A DNA stretch of 48,383 nt from a virus. Taxonomy: Duplodnaviria > Heunggongvirae > Uroviricota > Caudoviricetes. Shown here piece by piece: positions 39,465 through 48,383 of the stretch. The position numbers and the translations under genes were made by a program. The stretch is from IMG/VR virus record IMGVR_UViG_2671180501_000010; one strand, 5' to 3'. The notes under the pieces were generated by a model. The model saw nothing but the letters and a program-made list of their open reading frames with translations, ran no database searches and was not told the origin of the DNA. The stretch's first letter is position 1. Each line of letters begins with the position of its first letter.

Positions 39465-39887
39465 TTAATGAACAATGACAGAATCGTCGGAAGACCCGCC
39501 GCCGCTGAAATGCGCTTTCCGGTAAACGGCTTGGACTGCATCATCATGCGCATCAATTGCCGTACTTAACGCTTCCTGCGCCGCCAGTAATGCACGGCGT
39601 TCCAGGGTATCGAAGATGCAGAGTCGGTGACGCAGCTCGCGCGGAAGGATTGCCAGAATTGCTGGGATCAGCTTCTGAATTTTTTCTCTTTGCGTTTTCG
39701 TTTCACCTTTCAACCAACGGTGATAGATATTCTGCTGATTATTCCAGTCCTTGCCTGGTACCAGGGGCAATTCGCCGCCCCCCTGGCGCAGATATTCTTC
39801 AGTAATGGCATTGGCTACCCATGCCTGCCCTTTTTCGGCTGCCAGGGCTAACAACACTGACTCGATGTGCTCATGCTTGATTTTCAT
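39465..39887 (-). CDS. ydaT: YdaT (Rac toxic protein; cII-position gene)
   Basis: 140-aa ORF immediately downstream of the cro-like ydaS; matches recalled YdaT length and sequence. Confidence 0.8.
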   Translation of the reverse strand: MKIKHEHIESVLLALAAEKGQAWVANAITEEYLRQGGGELPLVPGKDWNNQQNIYHRWLKGETKTQREKIQKLIPAILAILPRELRHRLCIFDTLERRALLAAQEALSTAIDAHDDAVQAVYRKAHFSGGGSSDDSVIVH

Positions 39888-40138
39888 GAATCAACTCCCA
39901 TCAGCTTTTTCGTAGTAGTTTTATTTCTGCCAATAGTTAAAATTACATCAGCAGAAAATAATCCGTTTGATGCATGAGCGATTTTTTCAGCGTAATTTGT
40001 TTCGCCGGTATATTCTGTGCGAGGCAATTTTCCGTTATCCATCCATTTGTAGATTGCTCTTTGGCTGACACCACAAACGTCGGCCACAACAGAAACGCGA
40101 ACAGTTTTGATTACATCTTCAAGTGTTTTCTGGTTCAT
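39884..40138 (-). CDS. ydaS: YdaS, Cro-like HTH protein
   Basis: HTH segment VSQRAIYKWMDNGKLP; ATG 40138 preceded by GAGGG; in-frame alternative upstream start at 40210; divergent from racR. Confidence 0.75.
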   Translation of the reverse strand: MNQKTLEDVIKTVRVSVVADVCGVSQRAIYKWMDNGKLPRTEYTGETNYAEKIAHASNGLFSADVILTIGRNKTTTKKLMGVDS

Positions 40139-40199
40139 ATCACCCTCACAATGTGAACTTTGAGTACATGCTATAACAGAACTGACAGTACATTCAAGA
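40139..40199. promoter_or_regulatory. racR-ydaS divergent promoter/operator region
   Basis: 61-bp intergenic region between divergent repressor-like and cro-like genes; AGTACAT repeated at 40163-40169 and 40187-40193. Confidence 0.45.
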
Positions 40200-40637
40200 G
40201 TGAATATCATTGAACTTATGGTTCATGAAGATAAAGCGCGTAAAGAGTTCGCCAGTAGGCTTGCGCTAGCCTGTGAAAACGCTGGTTATGAACAACATGG
40301 AAGGCAGGCAGAAATTGCCCGTCGAATGAAATTAACACCAAAAGCGGTTAGCAAATGGTTTAATGGCGAAACAATTCCTCGCCGAGAGAAATTAAGGGAA
40401 TTAGCAACACTCATTGGAACAACACCAACCTATCTTTTGGGAGAGGATACAGAAGAAAGTGGACAGGTACGTTTCTATCAGGAGTTAAATCCAAGACAAA
40501 AAATCATCATTGACCTTCTGGACGAGCTCCCTGACAGTGAGACAGATGAACTTTTAAAAACTCTTGAGGAGAAAAAACAGAAGTACAATGCAATTTACGA
40601 AGAGCTAGCACGAAAGAAAAAACAAAAAGCCTCTTAA
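40200..40637 (+). CDS. racR: Prophage repressor RacR (HTH, cI-position)
   Basis: ORF with Cro/C1-type HTH (QAEIARRMKLTPKAVSKWFNGETIP); GTG at 40200 or ATG at 40218 as start; divergent from ydaS. Confidence 0.8.
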   Translation: MNIIELMVHEDKARKEFASRLALACENAGYEQHGRQAEIARRMKLTPKAVSKWFNGETIPRREKLRELATLIGTTPTYLLGEDTEESGQVRFYQELNPRQKIIIDLLDELPDSETDELLKTLEEKKQKYNAIYEELARKKKQKAS

Positions 40638-40927
40638 ACCAGCATAAATCCGGTAGCGTCCCCCTCCGGGTTTGTGCTTCACTTTATCCCATCTCATTTT
40701 TTTACACACAAAATGTACTTATAGTACTTTACATCAATGAACACAAAGTACATTATATACCTACCAACCCACCCCGCCCCACAGAACGCAGGGCAATACT
40801 TCGAGTTACCAGGCAGTGGTCAGGGGTTAAGTAGCCAGCCCGAGGCGTATGAACATGACGGCAGGGTTCAGATTTTGCAGTGCAGCAGGTTTCAGTTCCG
40901 CCACCCGGCGTTAAGGGGAGAGATAAG

Positions 40928-41062
40928 ATGGTGCATTACGAAGTAGTTCAGTATTTGATGGATTGTTGCGGTATCACTTACAACCAGGCTGTGCAGGCTT
41001 TACGCAGCAACGACTGGGATCTCTGGCAGGCAGAAGTCGCTATACACAGCAACAAGATGTGA
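40928..41062 (+). CDS. ydaG: Small Rac protein YdaG-like (44 aa)
   Basis: MVHYEVVQYLMDCCGITYNQAVQALRSNDWDLWQAEVAIHSNKM; RBS GGGGAGAG upstream; name from recalled Rac gene order. Confidence 0.5.
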   Translation: MVHYEVVQYLMDCCGITYNQAVQALRSNDWDLWQAEVAIHSNKM

Positions 41063-41072
41063 GATTCGCAAA

Positions 41073-41228
41073 ATGCAAAAAATCGACCTCGGCAACAACG
41101 AATCCCTGGTGTGCGGCGTGTTCCCCAACCAGGATGGAACGTTCACTGCCATGACGTATACCAAAAGCAAAACATTTAAAACCGAAACTGGTGCGCGCCG
41201 ATGGTTGGAGAAGCACACAGTAAGCTAA
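41073..41228 (+). CDS. ydaF: Small Rac protein YdaF-like (51 aa)
   Basis: MQKIDLGNNESLVCGVFPNQDGTFTAMTYTKSKTFKTETGARRWLEKHTVS; converges on the sieB 3' end; below the ORF-track length cutoff. Confidence 0.5.
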   Translation: MQKIDLGNNESLVCGVFPNQDGTFTAMTYTKSKTFKTETGARRWLEKHTVS

Positions 41229-41713
41229 CGATTAAAACGTCTACTCCTGCTGTTCCAGAATAACTTCATAAAATGGGAGTATTTTTCGGTGACGAGATAA
41301 TAAGAACAGTTTGCGCTATCACTCTGATGTTGAATGATGCCCTTCCGTTCTAATTTTTTCATAACCGGGTTACGGCAAGGAGAAGTGATAATAAGATTTC
41401 CTGTTTTAAGGAAATCTTTAAATACAGCGATTTCTTTCTCAGATAAACGAAGCAATACTCGTTGCTCTGGTAGTAATGAATAATGCTTTTGAATATGTGC
41501 TCGCAATCTTGAGAAGGAAATGGCGACCACGAAAGAAAAGGCAAAAACGATAATCTGAAAGAGCCAAGGTATTTCAGTATAAGCATTGAATGCGACAGTA
41601 AACTCTTTCGGTATCAGCCAGAGAGTGAGACCAAAAATGATAATCGTATACATAAGTATTTCGAGTGGCTCGTTAGCAAAAAGTTTCAACAATGGAGTAA
41701 ATACATCCAACAT
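41225..41713 (-). CDS. sieB: Superinfection exclusion protein B
   Basis: 162 aa from ATG 41713 (MLDVFTPLLKLFANEPLEILMYTIIIFGLTLWLIPKEF…), matching recalled SieB; membrane protein; AT-rich. Confidence 0.85.
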   Translation of the reverse strand: MLDVFTPLLKLFANEPLEILMYTIIIFGLTLWLIPKEFTVAFNAYTEIPWLFQIIVFAFSFVVAISFSRLRAHIQKHYSLLPEQRVLLRLSEKEIAVFKDFLKTGNLIITSPCRNPVMKKLERKGIIQHQSDSANCSYYLVTEKYSHFMKLFWNSRSRRFNR

Positions 41714-41930
41714 ATCAATAACTCTCAACTGTAAGGGTATTGAAATGTTAACACAAGCTCTCGCTGTAGGGGTATAGCCGAGACCACCGAAGCCCGGAGG
41801 TGGTGAAATAAAACCGGGCACAACACGAAGGCGCATTTCCGATATCCATAAAGAGTCGGTCTTGTCTGTTAAATTTAAATGGTGGGAGTGCGCCTCCGGT
41901 TGTAAATAACGACATTGCTGTGTGTAGTCC

Positions 41931-41980
41931 TGGCGGCATCAGTTTTTTTCTTGAAGTTCGGCTGATGTCCGCCCTTTTTA
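41931..41980 (+). promoter_or_regulatory. Inverted repeat / terminator-like hairpin in the kilR leader
   Basis: Arms ggcggcatcag (41932-41942) and ctgatgtccgcc (41962-41973) with one bulge, 19-nt T-rich spacer, followed by CTTTTTA. Confidence 0.35.
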
Positions 41981-42154
41981 AAGTGAATTTTGTGATGCGG
42001 TGAATGCGGCTAAGCGCACGTGGCACAGTTAAAAGTCATGTTAGTCCTTATTGGTTTGGGTGGGAAAGCCGACTGTAATTGTTAACTGGTTGCAGTCACC
42101 TGGAGGCACCAGGCACCGCATCAACAAAGTTCATTTGTAAAAATGGAGATAATT

Positions 42155-42376
42155 ATGATTGCACATCACTTCGGAACTGATGAAATACCACGTCAGTGTG
42201 TGACTCCTGGCGATTATGTTCTTCATGAAGGCCGGACATATATTGCCTCGGCAAACAATATTAAAAAGCGAAAACTATATATTCGTAACCTGACCACAAA
42301 AACATGCATTACTGACCGCATGATTAAAGTCTTCCTCGGTCGTGATGGTTTACCTGTAAAGGCGGAGTCATGGTGA
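42155..42376 (+). CDS. kilR: Killing protein KilR (inhibitor of cell division)
   Basis: 73 aa from ATG 42155 ([29 protein letters not shown]…), matching recalled KilR. Confidence 0.85.
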
Positions 42377-42546
42377 TGACTAAGAAAATAAAATGTGCTT
42401 ACCACCTTTGCAAAAAAGACGTTGAAGAAAGCAAAGCTATTGAAAGAATGCTTCACTTCATGCACGGGATTTTATCAAAAGACGAACCGAGAAAATATTG
42501 CAGTGAAGCTTGTGCCGAAAAAGACCAGATGGCACATGAACTTTAA
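42376..42546 (+). CDS. ydaE: YdaE (56 aa, Cys-rich small protein)
   Basis: ATG overlaps kilR stop by 1 nt (TGATG); [56 protein letters not shown]; below ORF-track cutoff. Confidence 0.6.
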   Translation: MTKKIKCAYHLCKKDVEESKAIERMLHFMHGILSKDEPRKYCSEACAEKDQMAHEL

Positions 42547-42620
42547 TTAATTGACTATTCGAAACTGAATTTATGCCAGAAATGGCAGGTATTCGCTCAA
42601 CCTTAATTAAGGAGAAAAAC

Positions 42621-42896
42621 ATGATTACCAATTATGAAGCCACTGTTGTAACTACCGATGACATTGTTCACGAGGTGAATCTGGAAGGAAAGCGCATTGG
42701 CTACGTAATTAAAACAGAAAATAAAGAAACCCCATTCACTGTGGTTGATATCGATGGTCCATCAGGCAACGTAAAAACACTTGATGAAGGTGTCAAAAAA
42801 ATGTGCCTGGTGCATATCGGAAAGAATCTGCCCGCAGAAAAAAAAGCCGAATTTCTGGCAACTCTAATTGCAATGAAATTAAAAGGTGAAATCTGA
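42621..42896 (+). CDS. racC: RacC
   Basis: 91 aa from ATG 42621 (MITNYEATVVTTDDIVHEVNLEGKRIGYVIKTENKETPF…) after GGAG RBS; matches recalled RacC. Confidence 0.8.
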   Translation: MITNYEATVVTTDDIVHEVNLEGKRIGYVIKTENKETPFTVVDIDGPSGNVKTLDEGVKKMCLVHIGKNLPAEKKAEFLATLIAMKLKGEI

Positions 42897-42997
42897 AAGA
42901 AATAGCCTGCGTATGGCGCAGGCTATGAACAGTGTGTATCCGGCAAGATCATTCACTGAACAAAACGAATTTTAATCTGAGTTGAGGTTAAAAAACA

Positions 42998-45598
42998 ATG
43001 AGCACAAAACCACTCTTCCTGTTACGGAAAGCGAAAAAATCATCCGGTGAACCTGACGTCGTCCTGTGGGCAAGCAACGATTTTGAATCGACCTGTGCCA
43101 CTCTGGACTACCTGATCGTTAAGTCAGGTAAAAAACTGAGCAGCTATTTTAAAGCTGTTGCCACGAATTTTCCTGTCGTTAATGACCTGCCCGCTGAAGG
43201 TGAGATCGATTTTACCTGGAGTGAACGCTATCAACTCAGCAAAGACTCCATGACATGGGAACTAAAACCGGGAGCAGCACCAGACAACGCTCACTATCAA
43301 GGCAATACCAACGTCAACGGCGAAGACATGACTGAGATTGAGGAGAATATGCTACTCCCAATTTCTGGCCAGGAACTGCCCATTCGTTGGCTTGCTCAAC
43401 ACGGCAGCGAAAAACCGGTAACGCACGTTTCACGCGACGGACTCCAGGCATTACACATTGCTCGGGCTGAAGAACTACCGGCTGTTACTGCCCTGGCTGT
43501 TTCCCACAAAACCAGCCTGCTCGACCCGCTGGAAATTCGCGAACTCCACAAACTGGTTCGTGACACTGACAAAGTTTTCCCTAATCCTGGTAATTCAAAC
43601 CTGGGACTGATAACTGCTTTTTTCGAAGCATACCTGAACGCTGACTACACCGATCGAGGACTGCTGACAAAAGAGTGGATGAAGGGTAATCGTGTTTCAC
43701 ACATCACTCGCACGGCTTCCGGTGCTAATGCTGGCGGCGGAAACCTCACCGATCGCGGCGAAGGTTTCGTACACGATCTGACGTCACTGGCGCGGGACGT
43801 AGCCACTGGCGTACTGGCCCGTTCAATGGATCTGGACATCTATAACCTTCATCCGGCACACGCTAAACGCATTGAGGAAATTATCGCTGAAAATAAACCG
43901 CCCTTTTCTGTTTTCCGCGACAAATTCATCACCATGCCTGGCGGGCTGGATTATTCCCGCGCCATCGTGGTTGCGTCCGTAAAAGAAGCACCAATTGGGA
44001 TCGAGGTCATCCCCGCGCACGTCACTGAATATCTGAACAAAGTACTGACTGAAACCGATCATGCCAACCCTGATCCGGAAATCGTGGATATTGCCTGCGG
44101 TCGCTCCTCTGCCCCGATGCCGCAGCGAGTAACAGAAGAAGGAAAACAGGATGATGAAGAAAAACCGCAACCATCTGGAACAACGGCAGTTGAACAGGGA
44201 GAGGCTGAAACAATGGAACCGGACGCAACTGAACATCATCAGGACACGCAGCCGCTGGATGCTCAGTCACAGGTAAATTCTGTTGATGCGAAATATCAGG
44301 AACTGCGGGCAGAACTCCATGAAGCCCGGAAAAACATTCCATCAAAAAATCCTGTCGATGCCGATAAATTGCTTGCTGCATCACGTGGTGAATTTGTTGA
44401 CGGAATTAGCGACCCGAACGATCCGAAATGGGTAAAGGGGATCCAGACTCGCGATTGTGTGTACCAGAACCAGCCAGAAACGGAAAAAACCAGCCCGGAT
44501 ATGAATCAACCTGAGCCAGTAGTGCAACAGGAACCGGAAATAGCCTGCAATGCCTGCGGCCAGACTGGCGGGGATAACTGCCCTGACTGTGGTGCGGTGA
44601 TGGGCGACGCAACATACCAGGAAACATTCGATGAAGAGAGTCAGGTTGAAGCTAAGGAAAATGATCCGGAGGAAATGGAAGGCGCTGAACATCCGCACAA
44701 TGAGAATGCTGGCAGCGATCCGCATCGCGATTGCAGTGATGAAACTGGCGAAGTCGCAGATCCCGTAATCGTAGAAGACATAGAGCCAGGTATTTATTAC
44801 GGAATTTCGAATGAGAATTACCACGCGGGTCCCGGTGTCAGTAAGTCTCAGCTCGATGACATTGCTGATACTCCGGCACTGTATTTGTGGCGTAAAAATG
44901 CCCCCGTGGACACCACAAAGACAAAAACGCTCGATTTAGGAACCGCTTTCCACTGCCGGGTACTTGAGCCGGAAGAATTCAGTAACCGCTTTATCGTAGC
45001 ACCTGAATTTAACCGCCGGACAAACTCCGGAAAAGAAGAAGAGAAAGCGTTTCTGAGGGAATGCGCAAGCACAGGAAAAACGGTTATCACTGCCGAAGAA
45101 GGCCGGAAAATTGAACTCATGTATCAGAGCGTTATGGCTTTGCCGCTGGGGCAATGGCTTGTTGAAAGCGCCGGACACGCTGAATCATCAATTTACTGGG
45201 AAGATCCTGAAACAGCAATTTTGTGTCGGTGCCGTCCGGACAAAATTATCCCTGAATTTCACTGGATCATGGACGTGAAAACTACGGCGGATATTCAACG
45301 ATTCAAAACCGCTTATTACGACTACCGCTATCACGTTCAGGATGCATTCTACAGTGACGGTTATGAAGCACAGTTTGGAGTGCAGCCAACTTTCGTTTTT
45401 CTGGTTGCCAGCACAACTATTGAATGCGGACGTTATCCGGTTGAAATTTTCATGATGGGCGAAGAAGCAAAACTGGCAGGTCAGCTGGAATATCACCGCA
45501 ATCTGCGAACCCTGGCTGACTGCCTCAATACCGATGAATGGCCAGCTATTAAGACGTTATCACTGCCCCGCTGGGCTAAGGAATATGCAAATGACTAA
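42998..45598 (+). CDS. recE: Exodeoxyribonuclease VIII (RecE)
   Basis: 866-aa ORF, the recalled RecE length; acidic linker; C-terminal nuclease region; stop overlaps recT start. Confidence 0.9.
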
Positions 45599-46400
45599 GC
45601 AACCACCAATCGCAAAAGCCGATCTGCAAAAAACTCAGGGAAACCGTGCACCAGCAGCAATTAAAAATAACGACGTGATTAGTTTTATTAACCAGCCATC
45701 AATGAAAGAGCAACTGGCAGCAGCTCTTCCACGCCATATGACGGCTGAACGTATGATCCGTATCGCCACCACAGAAATTCGTAAAGTTCCGGCGTTAGGA
45801 AACTGTGACACTATGAGTTTTGTCAGTGCAATCGTACAGTGTTCACAGCTCGGACTTGAGCCCGGTAGCGCCCTCGGTCATGCATATTTACTGCCTTTTG
45901 GTAATAAAAACGAAAAGAGCGGTAAAAAAAACGTTCAGCTAATCATTGGCTATCGCGGCATGATTGATCTGGCTCGCCGTTCAGGTCAAATCGCCAGCCT
46001 GTCAGCCCGTGTTGTCCGTGAAGGTGACGAGTTTAATTTCGAATTTGGCCTTGATGAAAAGTTAATACACCGCCCAGGAGAAAACGAAGATGCCCCTGTT
46101 ACCCACGTCTATGCTGTCGCAAGACTGAAAGACGGAGGTACTCAGTTTGAAGTTATGACGCGCAAACAGATTGAGCTGGTGCGCAGCCAGAGTAAAGCTG
46201 GTAATAACGGGCCGTGGGTAACTCACTGGGAAGAAATGGCAAAGAAAACGGCTATTCGTCGCCTGTTCAAATATCTGCCCGTATCAATTGAGATCCAGCG
46301 TGCAGTATCAATGGATGAAAAGGAACCACTGACAATCGATCCTGCAGATTCCTCTGTATTAACCGGGGAATACAGTGTAATCGATAATTCAGAGGAATAA
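45591..46400 (+). CDS. recT: Recombinase RecT (single-strand annealing protein)
   Basis: ATG 45591 ([23 protein letters not shown]…) overlaps the recE stop; matches recalled RecT (269 aa). Confidence 0.9.
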
Positions 46401-46455
46401 TTCAGCCTGGCGGTGTAATGCACCGCCAACTTGAAATATTTTTATGAGAAAAATT

Positions 46456-46650
46456 ATGAGATATGACAATGTTAAACCATGTCCATTTTGTGGTTGTCCA
46501 TCAGTAACGGTGAAAGCCATTTCAGGATATTACCGAGCGAAGTGTAACGGATGCGAATCCCGAACCGGTTATGGTGGAAGTGAAAAAGAAGCACTCGAAC
46601 GATGAAATAAACGAACCACTGGAAATAATAATGGAGGTGTTCATGTATAA
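46456..46650 (+). pseudogene. ralR: Restriction alleviation protein RalR/Lar, interrupted by an in-frame TGA at codon 50
   Basis: Reads MRYDNVKPCPFCGCPSVTVKAISGYYRAKCNGCESRTGYGGSEKEALER-TGA-NKRTTGNNNGGVHV-TAA; the final TAA overlaps the ydaC ATG as in the intact arrangement; the recalled intact protein has W at the TGA position. Confidence 0.6.
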
Positions 46651-46831
46651 AATTACCGCCACTATTGAAAAGGAAGGTGGCACTCCTACTAACTGGACAA
46701 GATATTCAAAATCTAAACTAACGAAATCAGAATGCGAAAAAATGCTCTCAGGTAAAAAAGAAGCAGGCGTTTCCAGAGAGCAGAAAGTAAAACTGATAAA
46801 TTTTAATTGCGAGAAACTTCAGTCCTCGTGA
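46643..46831 (+). CDS. ydaC: YdaC-like small protein (62 aa)
   Basis: ATG 46643 after GGAGGTG; MYKITATIEKEGGTPTNWTRYSKSKLTKSECEKMLSGKKEAGVSREQKVKLINFNCEKLQSS. Confidence 0.6.
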   Translation: MYKITATIEKEGGTPTNWTRYSKSKLTKSECEKMLSGKKEAGVSREQKVKLINFNCEKLQSS

Positions 46832-46930
46832 ATTGCATTGTATTCAAATTAAAACTTCATAGCTGATTATTAATAATCAACATCGGGCGTCAATTTAAGT
46901 CTAACATTGGCGCCTGCCAGAGGTGATGCG

Positions 46931-47146
46931 ATGGCACAAGTAATCTTTAATGAAGAGTGGATGGTTGAATACGGCCTGATGCTTCGCACTGGTCTGGGGG
47001 CCAGACAAATTGAAGCATACCGCCAGAACTGTTGGGTGGAAGGCTTCCACTTCAAACGAGTATCTCCTTTAGGGAAGCCAGACAGTAAGCGAGGGATTAT
47101 CTGGTATAACTATCCAAAGATAAATCAGTTTATCAAAGACTCATGA
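46931..47146 (+). CDS. xisR: Excisionase (Xis-like)
   Basis: ATG 46931 ([43 protein letters not shown]…); small basic DNA-binding protein ending 1 nt before int. Confidence 0.75.
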
Positions 47147-47147
47147 T

Positions 47148-48383
47148 ATGTCTAAATTACCAACAGGTGTCGAGATTCGAGGTAAATACATTCGCATCTG
47201 GTTCATGTTTCGAGGAAAACGATGTCGGGAAACATTGAAAGGCTGGGAGGTTACTAACAGTAACATTAAAAAAGCCGGGAATTTAAGAGCGTTGATAGTT
47301 CATGAAATCAATTCCGGTGAGTTTGAGTATTTAAGACGTTTTCCCCAGTCCAGCACTGGGGCAAAAATGGTGACAACGAGGGTCATAAAAACGTTCGGGG
47401 AGCTTTGTGATATCTGGACAAAAATTAAAGAAACAGAGTTAACAACAAACACAATGAAGAAAACGAAATCACAATTAAAAACACTCAGGATAATAATTTG
47501 TGAGAGTACTCCGATATCGCATATTCGTTATAGCGATATCTTAAACTACCGGAATGAACTGCTGCATGGAGAAACGCTTTACCTGGATAATCCAAGATCC
47601 AACAAAAAAGGAAGAACCGTGCGCACAGTTGATAACTATATCGCCCTGCTCTGTTCGTTGTTACGTTTTGCGTATCAGTCGGGATTTATATCAACCAAAC
47701 CATTTGAAGGAGTAAAGAAATTACAGAGAAACAGAATAAAGCCTGACCCGTTATCTAAAACAGAATTCAATGCATTAATGGAAAGTGAAAAAGGACAGAG
47801 CCAGAACTTGTGGAAATTTGCCGTATACTCCGGGCTTCGTCACGGGGAACTGGCTGCTCTGGCGTGGGAGGATGTGGATTTCGAGAAGGGAGTTGTGAAT
47901 GTCAGAAGAAACCTGACGATACTGGATATGTTCGGTCCCCCAAAAACAAATGCGGGGATCCGGACGGTAACACTACTGCAGCCTGCTCTTGAAGCACTGA
48001 AGGAGCAATACAAACTGACCGGGCATCATCGCAAAAGCGAAATCACTTTTTATCATCGGGAGTACGGCAGAACCGAAAAGCAAAAACTGCATTTTGTTTT
48101 CATGCCCAGAGTGTGTAACGGAAAACAGAAACCTTATTACTCGGTAAGCAGTTTGGGTGCGAGATGGAATGCAGCAGTAAAACGTGCTGGTATTCGCCGC
48201 CGTAATCCGTACCATACGCGGCATACTTTTGCCTGCTGGCTGTTGACGGCAGGAGCGAACCCGGCGTTTATAGCCAGCCAGATGGGGCATGAAACTGCGC
48301 AGATGGTGTATGAAATTTACGGTATGTGGATTGATGACATGAACGACGAACAGGTAGCCATGTTGAATGCGCGGTTATCGTAG
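47148..48383 (+). CDS. intR: Tyrosine-type site-specific integrase
   Basis: 411-aa ORF; C-terminal catalytic signature (…NPYHTRHTFACWLLTAGANPAFIASQMGHETAQMVYEIYGMW…) with R/H/R/Y residues; matches recalled Rac IntR; the stop is the last codon of the window. Confidence 0.9.
   Translation: MSKLPTGVEIRGKYIRIWFMFRGKRCRETLKGWEVTNSNIKKAGNLRALIVHEINSGEFEYLRRFPQSSTGAKMVTTRVIKTFGELCDIWTKIKETELTTNTMKKTKSQLKTLRIIICESTPISHIRYSDILNYRNELLHGETLYLDNPRSNKKGRTVRTVDNYIALLCSLLRFAYQSGFISTKPFEGVKKLQRNRIKPDPLSKTEFNALMESEKGQSQNLWKFAVYSGLRHGELAALAWEDVDFEKGVVNVRRNLTILDMFGPPKTNAGIRTVTLLQPALEALKEQYKLTGHHRKSEITFYHREYGRTEKQKLHFVFMPRVCNGKQKPYYSVSSLGARWNAAVKRAGIRRRNPYHTRHTFACWLLTAGANPAFIASQMGHETAQMVYEIYGMWIDDMNDEQVAMLNARLS

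Follow-up and report, generated by a model that had tools for sequence, protein, structure and literature searches.

The gene now called ralR is said to have been named lar in the 1995 account of King and Murray, and whether its product acts as a DNase toxin or in restriction alleviation is disputed. In the RalR/RalA type I toxin–antitoxin system of the Escherichia coli K-12 Rac prophage, a 16-nt repeat is shared by the RalA antitoxin RNA and the ralR mRNA, and non-synonymous changes in ralR codons 42–47, where this pairing site lies, abolish toxicity; the study of Guo et al. that describes the system contains no truncation or C-terminal data on RalR (PMC4041452). A related prophage of O157:H7, Sp10 of strain Sakai, excises, circularises and transfers to K-12 (PMC2669165). 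Here we compare with these systems a ralR locus in which the tryptophan codon at position 50 is replaced by an opal stop.

The window, by which we mean the whole stretch of DNA analysed (48,383 nt, positions 1–48383), looks like a complete lambdoid prophage of the Rac type, 48 kb long: genes for tail, head, terminase and lysis accompany trkG, an immunity region, recET and int. Its genes run in the order recE-recT-ralR-ydaC-xisR-intR, adjoining ttcA, and two features of the RalR/RalA system are present, namely the RalA small RNA and its complementarity inside the ralR coding region. The Rac remnant of K-12 is about half as long as this prophage. The features on which the analysis turns are as follows.

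45591–48383, plus strand: the recT-ralR-ydaC-xisR-intR module, which carries the TGA allele and appears to have moved between strains.
46456–46605, plus strand: ralR (lar) in its truncated form, 49 codons and TGA; the identical 150-bp coding sequence is that of RefSeq RalR WP_001443846.1.
46580–46595, plus strand: the RalA pairing site in the ralR mRNA, codons 42–47, a direct repeat whose sequence is unchanged.
46603–46605, plus strand: the derived opal codon (TGG to TGA, W50*), TGG in K-12 and O145; the next base is A, at 46606.
46606–46650, plus strand: the former ralR tail, codons 51–64 and TAA, 100% identical to the intact alleles of K-12 and O145.
46643–46831, plus strand: ydaC (DUF1187; rcbA in K-12), 62 aa, Pfam PF06688 at 132 bits, RefSeq WP_001302840.1.
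46649–46827, minus strand: the full-length RalA antitoxin small RNA, Rfam RF02694 at 225.1 bits, model positions 1–179 of 179.

The ATG at 46456 is the ralR start, and the frame that it opens encodes MRYDNVKPCPFCGCPSVTVKAISGYYRAKCNGCESRTGYGGSEKEALER and stops at codon 50, leaving no full-length 64-aa toxin ORF in the window. A sequence-only reading of this DNA had proposed that the TGA at codon 50 stands where intact RalR has tryptophan, and the K-12 MG1655 alignment bears this out, with TGG at that codon and 100% identity over the following 45 nt. The other elements of that proposal also hold: the base directly 3′ of the stop is A, and 14 further sense codons, NKRTTGNNNGGVHV, lead in the same frame to a TAA at 46648–46650. 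Because 14 open codons are expected by chance about half the time ((61/64)^14 ≈ 0.5), an open tail would be unremarkable alone; what appears meaningful is its base-for-base identity with intact alleles. This tail encodes Asn51 and Arg53 and is untranslated unless the UGA is read through. Over its 195 bases ralR differs from K-12 at two positions, and the comparison with intact alleles yields nothing besides codon 50 and one synonymous change at Arg49, codon 49 being CGA in all TGA carriers and AGA in K-12. Together with the ancestral state of Trp50 (see below), these differences support the earlier view that a change of one base put a stop into a gene that is not decayed in other respects. The finding that the sequence-only reading named as fatal to it, a reference RalR ending at this position, does not apply to K-12, whose protein has 64 aa, although RefSeq has a 49-aa reference protein for the TGA allele.

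One detail of the sequence-only reading was wrong, namely that the TAA overlaps the ydaC start codon: the ydaC ATG occupies 46643–46645, and the TAA lies over ydaC codons 2–3. The overlap between ydaC and the ralR 3′ end is 8 nt (ATGTATAA), and both the ydaC Shine–Dalgarno sequence GGAGG (46633–46637) and the ydaC start fall within the former ralR tail. RalA, to which ydaC is antisense, scores well above the RF02694 gathering score of 170 bits and shows zero differences from K-12 over its span. The pairing site ends about 8–10 nt upstream of the TGA stop. The 14-nt core of the repeat lies at 46580–46593 and again at 46752–46765, with 13 of 14 bases matching, 11 of them contiguous, and its position and spacing agree with those of the 16-nt RalA:ralR repeat reported by Guo et al. 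(PMC4041452).

Several further observations concern these neighbours. The ydaC stop (46829–46831) is TGA in the window and in O145, giving 62 aa, and AGA in K-12, giving an RcbA/YdaC of 69 aa; the variable base, 46829, lies just outside RalA, 2 nt upstream of its 5′ end, and might affect RalA initiation. Upstream of the annotated ATG the ydaC frame continues without a stop for another 72 nt and spans 46571–46831 in all; it runs in +1 relative to ralR codons 39–64 and offers further in-frame ATGs, at 46571 and at 46631. Between recT and ralR, at 46409–46427, there is a GC-rich hairpin, GGCGGTG-TAATG-CACCGCC, 9 nt past the stop of recT and with ralR starting about 30 nt further on. The otherwise divergent O145 module keeps the stem, with a different loop, and a terminator scan missed the hairpin because its T-run is displaced. 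The best sigma-70-like site of the region (46866–46893, minus strand, TTGACG-16-AATAAT, 10 of 12) points at RalA, but 39 nt separate its end from the downstream RalA 5′ end that Rfam and primer extension place at about 46827; either this site does not serve as the promoter of RalA, or RalA has a longer precursor.

To ask how widely the allele occurs, we used a 55-mer centred on 46605, a design that forces each 28-nt megablast seed to include the variant base. The TGA form is present in 310 of 5,426 complete E. coli genomes, every match at 100% (O157:H7 Sakai and EDL933, O55:H7, O111:H8 and others), and the TGG form in at least 1,310 genomes of the same set. The 195-bp ralR ORF was found in 1,905 genomes, exactly 310 of which match at ≥99%; the two sets of 310 are taken to be the same from their equal counts, and codon 50 was typed in all ralR-bearing genomes except about 300 whose alleles are more divergent. 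Because the collection is rich in pathogens, the resulting frequency of 16% is uninformative on selection. Over 521 bp around ralR, the window is 100% identical to O157:H7 Sakai, EDL933, O55:H7, O111 and others. PLSDB plasmids gave no match to the TGA 55-mer.

The 49-aa allele is already catalogued in databases. The exact protein occurs on at least 1,000 contigs and has both a MULTISPECIES RefSeq record, WP_001443846.1, and a UniRef entry; RefSeq annotates it as RalR on the 150-bp coding sequence in EDL933, NCTC10444, O111 and others, without a pseudogene flag, and the Sakai record leaves the 49-aa ralR unannotated. Our literature search found no paper on ralR in O157 or on the W50* truncation. 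Phage records that carry the allele (vB_EcoS-666R9 and others) were considered as evidence of particles and set aside, as they are prophages read from genome sequences (bioRxiv 10.1101/2022.06.29.498070).

Relatives indicate which state of codon 50 is older. The comparison with related ralR alleles called for by the sequence-only reading gives tryptophan in K-12, O145, Salmonella and Citrobacter alike, and since the Salmonella and Citrobacter homologues retain R-W-N-K/R-R, Trp50 is ancestral and TGA derived. A full HMMER scan covered 1,690 Lar-family representatives, and conservation was scored in 60 single-domain representatives, each from a different 50%-identity cluster. In this sample Trp50 (60/60), Asn51 (60/60) and Arg53 (59/60) are on a par with the four cysteines, and none of the 60 proteins stops short of the W-N-x-R motif; residues 55–64 are unconserved. 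Many Lar-family representatives are multi-domain, with two to five tandem Lar zinc-ribbon repeats (P0050, P0055, P0071, P0156 and others; one example has 322 aa and four matched stretches), in contrast with the single-domain phage proteins.

The 49-aa product contains the zinc ribbon, CPFC ... CxxC, with C9, C12, C30 and C33 (each 60/60 among the representatives), and is missing the W-N-x-R motif, W50 being the stop and N51 and R53 being encoded downstream of it. Its match to Pfam PF14354 (Lar_restr_allev) covers profile positions 2–52 of 58 at 39 bits, down from 53.5 bits for the intact protein and above the gathering score of 28.6. An AlphaFold model of an intact homologue, of moderate confidence (pLDDT 69), has three strands and one helix, residues 43–58; the stop falls within this helix, so the only helix predicted would be halved. 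A sequence search of solved structures returned only spurious CbpD matches (E = 0.002–0.016), and Foldseek against the PDB gave nothing under E = 0.23, with generic zinc-ribbon folds only. Loss of the invariant WNxR motif, halving of the helix and the published effect of changes in codons 42–47 make loss or strong weakening of function the likeliest outcome, and the 49-aa product is most probably non-toxic or strongly weakened.

The earlier proposal of a recent inactivating mutation thus stands in part: inactivation is likely, given the lost WNxR motif, and the implication of a recent, private event does not hold, as the module has spread into unrelated backgrounds. As expected of a pseudogene, the allele has a derived premature stop within a conserved domain and intact orthologues elsewhere. 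We detected no secondary decay after the stop: the 310 carriers are identical over the 55-mer, and six carriers show no differences in ralR–ydaC. Because no carrier examined shows secondary ralR decay, relaxed selection is not demonstrable.

Other lesions affect the same part of RalR. Some E. coli encode RalR–YdaC fusion proteins; in one (P0012), RalR ...SEKEA is joined to YdaC GVSREQ..., exactly the junction expected if 172 bp had been deleted from one copy of the RalA pairing repeat to the other; such a deletion would cost RalR its C-terminus and RalA its 3′ part at a single stroke. A second fusion (P0015) is joined at a different short repeat. There is also a W50S protein (P0002) and one with a frameshifted tail (P0005). 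These variants and fusions suggest that the RalR C-terminus has been damaged repeatedly in nature.

To trace the history of the allele, we compared six TGA carriers, all with the prophage at ttcA: O157, O111, AR_0067, XJ34, EC09 and NCTC10444. Among them the recT–int module differs at 0–11 of 2,793 nt, whereas the adjacent ttcA–zntB chromosome differs at 16–76 of 2,943 nt. O111 and AR_0067 have no differences in the module and 61 in the chromosome, and EC09 has a K-12-like flank (2 differences) next to a module with 62 differences from that of K-12. The window is identical to Sakai Sp10 over 46000–48046. That the module is nearly identical while the chromosome diverges argues for the horizontal spread of one TGA-bearing module, and from haplotype identity we infer that the TGA allele arose once. 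No direct TGG parent of the window haplotype was found in the 5,426-genome collection; three TGG genomes that match over the 55-mer were considered as parents and rejected for their different recT module and ralR 5′ end.

The module occurs on both intact and decayed prophages. In EC09 (L014) and XJ34 (L012) the prophage is heavily decayed, with a truncated recE, an IS1 fragment and a frameshifted recT; even so, their 49-aa RalR, DUF1187 protein, XisR and IntR do not differ from those of intact elements. The closest relative of the window is the prophage in NCTC10444, which matches it over 28 kb at 99.96% identity. With O157 Sp10 the window shares only its right 8.9 kb (39467–48383, 99.2%), the remainder being mosaic; identification of the window with Sp10 was accordingly rejected in favour of a trkG-bearing Rac-type prophage nearest that of NCTC10444. 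Only 133 of the 5,426 genomes cover at least 80% of the window's right 25 kb. Sp10 carries the TGA allele yet is mobile, which indicates that full-length RalR is dispensable for mobility.

We therefore favour, as the probable explanation, that W50* is a heritable opal allele of ralR, null or strongly weakened, with a single origin and module-borne spread, and tolerated by the prophage. On this account TGG would have changed to TGA once, on one recT–int haplotype of a ttcA-integrated Rac-type prophage, and phage transfer, recombination or both would have carried the module into unrelated E. coli lineages; the module would now sit on backbones as different as the 48-kb Rac-type prophage of the window with its trkG, the Sp10 element of O157 and the remnants of decayed prophages. 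The protein of 49 residues would keep the four-cysteine zinc ribbon and lose the second half of the helix together with Trp-Asn-x-Arg. Loss of RalR may be tolerated because ralR is accessory and unneeded for excision, transfer or lysogeny. RalA, its pairing site and ydaC would be untouched because drift has had little time to act since the mutation and because RalA shares its DNA with ydaC, and the ralR tail would likewise be intact owing to the youth of the allele and to the ydaC Shine–Dalgarno sequence and start that overlap it.

The other explanations differ in what they make of the stop. An error of sequencing or assembly at 46605, which the sequence-only reading had listed, was possible a priori and has nothing further in its favour; the identical base in 310 complete genomes, which were sequenced independently by many laboratories on many platforms and include Sakai, EDL933 and NCTC strains, and the exact 49-aa protein on at least 1,000 contigs refute it for the allele as such, and its probability is practically nil. 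A second view takes the stop as real and the 49-aa protein as still functional, with the zinc ribbon alone sufficient for toxic (DNase) or restriction-alleviation activity and the C-terminus dispensable. Both CxxC pairs are indeed retained, the PF14354 score of 39 bits exceeds the gathering threshold of 28.6, RefSeq names the protein RalR without a pseudogene flag, and residues 55–64 are unconserved in the family. However, the family varies no more at W50, N51 and R53 than at the zinc ligands, no representative ends before these residues, the stop halves the only helix, and amino-acid changes in codons 42–47 already abolish toxicity (PMC4041452). We consider a functional 49-aa product quite unlikely.

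The remaining views let ribosomes pass the stop. If the UGA-A were read by the normal Trp-tRNA, wild-type 64-aa RalR would be made at about 0.1–4% of normal output, and the allele would be a dose-reduced toxin, not a null, which might be favoured for its lower dose; we judge both statements unlikely. They draw on the UGA-A context, on the intact 14-codon tail and TAA, identical to those of functional alleles, and on the persistence and spread of the TGA allele. A 3′ A reportedly favours UGA suppression by normal tRNATrp, a finding attributed to Engelberg-Kulka in 1981, and phage Q-beta relies on UGA readthrough of this kind; the RF2 of K-12 is unusually weak. With a K-12 reporter, Trp-tRNA readthrough of UGA in competition with RF2 reached about 2% at 37 °C and 4% at 25 °C (PMC10570021). 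As these figures come from a weak-RF2 strain, readthrough in natural isolates is expected to be lower. Against a leaky stop, UGA is not conserved at codon 50 in any homologue, an Rfam scan at E ≤ 10 revealed no recoding element, and preservation of the tail is explained by the youth of the allele and the overlapping ydaC Shine–Dalgarno sequence and start. Rfam scans at the gathering threshold and at E ≤ 10 returned RalA only, with no SECIS or other recoding RNA, and shuffled sequences fold as well as the 45–81 nt that surround and follow the stop (z from –0.14 to 0.29). Trp readthrough is neither supported by nor contrary to the evidence in hand. Programmed recoding, either as selenocysteine at the UGA or as a +1 frameshift at CGA-UGA-A that would yield a RalR–YdaC fusion, is highly improbable. 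In its favour, the +1 frame after the stop is that of ydaC, open from 46571 across the junction, and natural RalR–YdaC fusions exist, though these arose by deletion. Against it, there is no SECIS-like match and no hairpin, the homologues do not share the UGA, TGA occurs on a single haplotype, and the site lacks both a slippery P-site codon and an upstream Shine–Dalgarno-like stimulator as in prfB. The codon CGA cannot re-pair on GAU.

A more speculative extension of the leaky stop is that W50-opal is a self-correcting allele, in which readthrough at a level of about 1% regenerates authentic full-length RalR. We regard this as rather improbable. If true, toxin dose would track Trp-tRNA and RF2 status, and hence growth state, temperature and cAMP, and this could explain the spread of a mobile module through EHEC and other lineages with RalA intact.

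Considered as the heritable null or strongly weakened allele that we favour, W50* is ordinary in kind and of modest importance, and it is no surprise to a specialist. Its chief practical value lies in an annotation caveat and in a ready natural mutant for settling RalR/Lar function. The 49-aa product is labelled a RalR endodeoxyribonuclease toxin in RefSeq and phage records, and because of these labels toxin–antitoxin surveys would count a toxin that lacks the invariant motif in O157:H7, in O111 and in some 6% of the complete E. coli genomes. The locus also offers a natural experiment on the dispute between DNase toxin and restriction alleviation: isogenic TGA and TGG modules occur in nature, and Sp10 is transferable. 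More generally, it provides a clean case in which a single nonsense allele has been carried across phylogroups as a hitch-hiker on a prophage module that recombines.

Among described systems, the nearest is RalR/RalA of K-12 Rac (PMC4041452), with which the window shares the locus, the gene order at ttcA, the RalA sequence and the 16-nt pairing site. It differs in having TGA rather than TGG at codon 50 and a RalR of 49 rather than 64 aa without WNxR, and in carrying a full-length 48-kb element and a YdaC of 62 aa, where K-12 has a 23-kb remnant and a YdaC of 69 aa. The 49-aa entry 'Restriction alleviation protein, Lar family' (WP_001443846.1 and UniRef; EDL933, Sakai Sp10) is the same allele, identical in protein and over 521 bp of DNA; its records present an ordinary RalR toxin and mention neither the truncation nor the missing invariant motif. 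The examples of UGA readthrough by tRNATrp, Q-beta coat/A1 and E. coli nudL (PMC10570021), likewise have UGA-A and an open in-frame extension. In those cases, however, the stop is conserved and the extension functional, whereas in ralR the stop is derived, falls within a conserved domain and shows no sign of conservation or of stimulatory signals. Finally, the locus resembles the inactivated chromosomal type I toxins represented by the hok homologues, which in K-12 are described as mostly inactive (PMC4041452), in that a toxin gene is disabled and the antitoxin RNA region persists; unlike theirs, the ralR lesion consists of one clean nonsense codon, with no IS insertion or rearrangement, and the element that carries it is still mobile.
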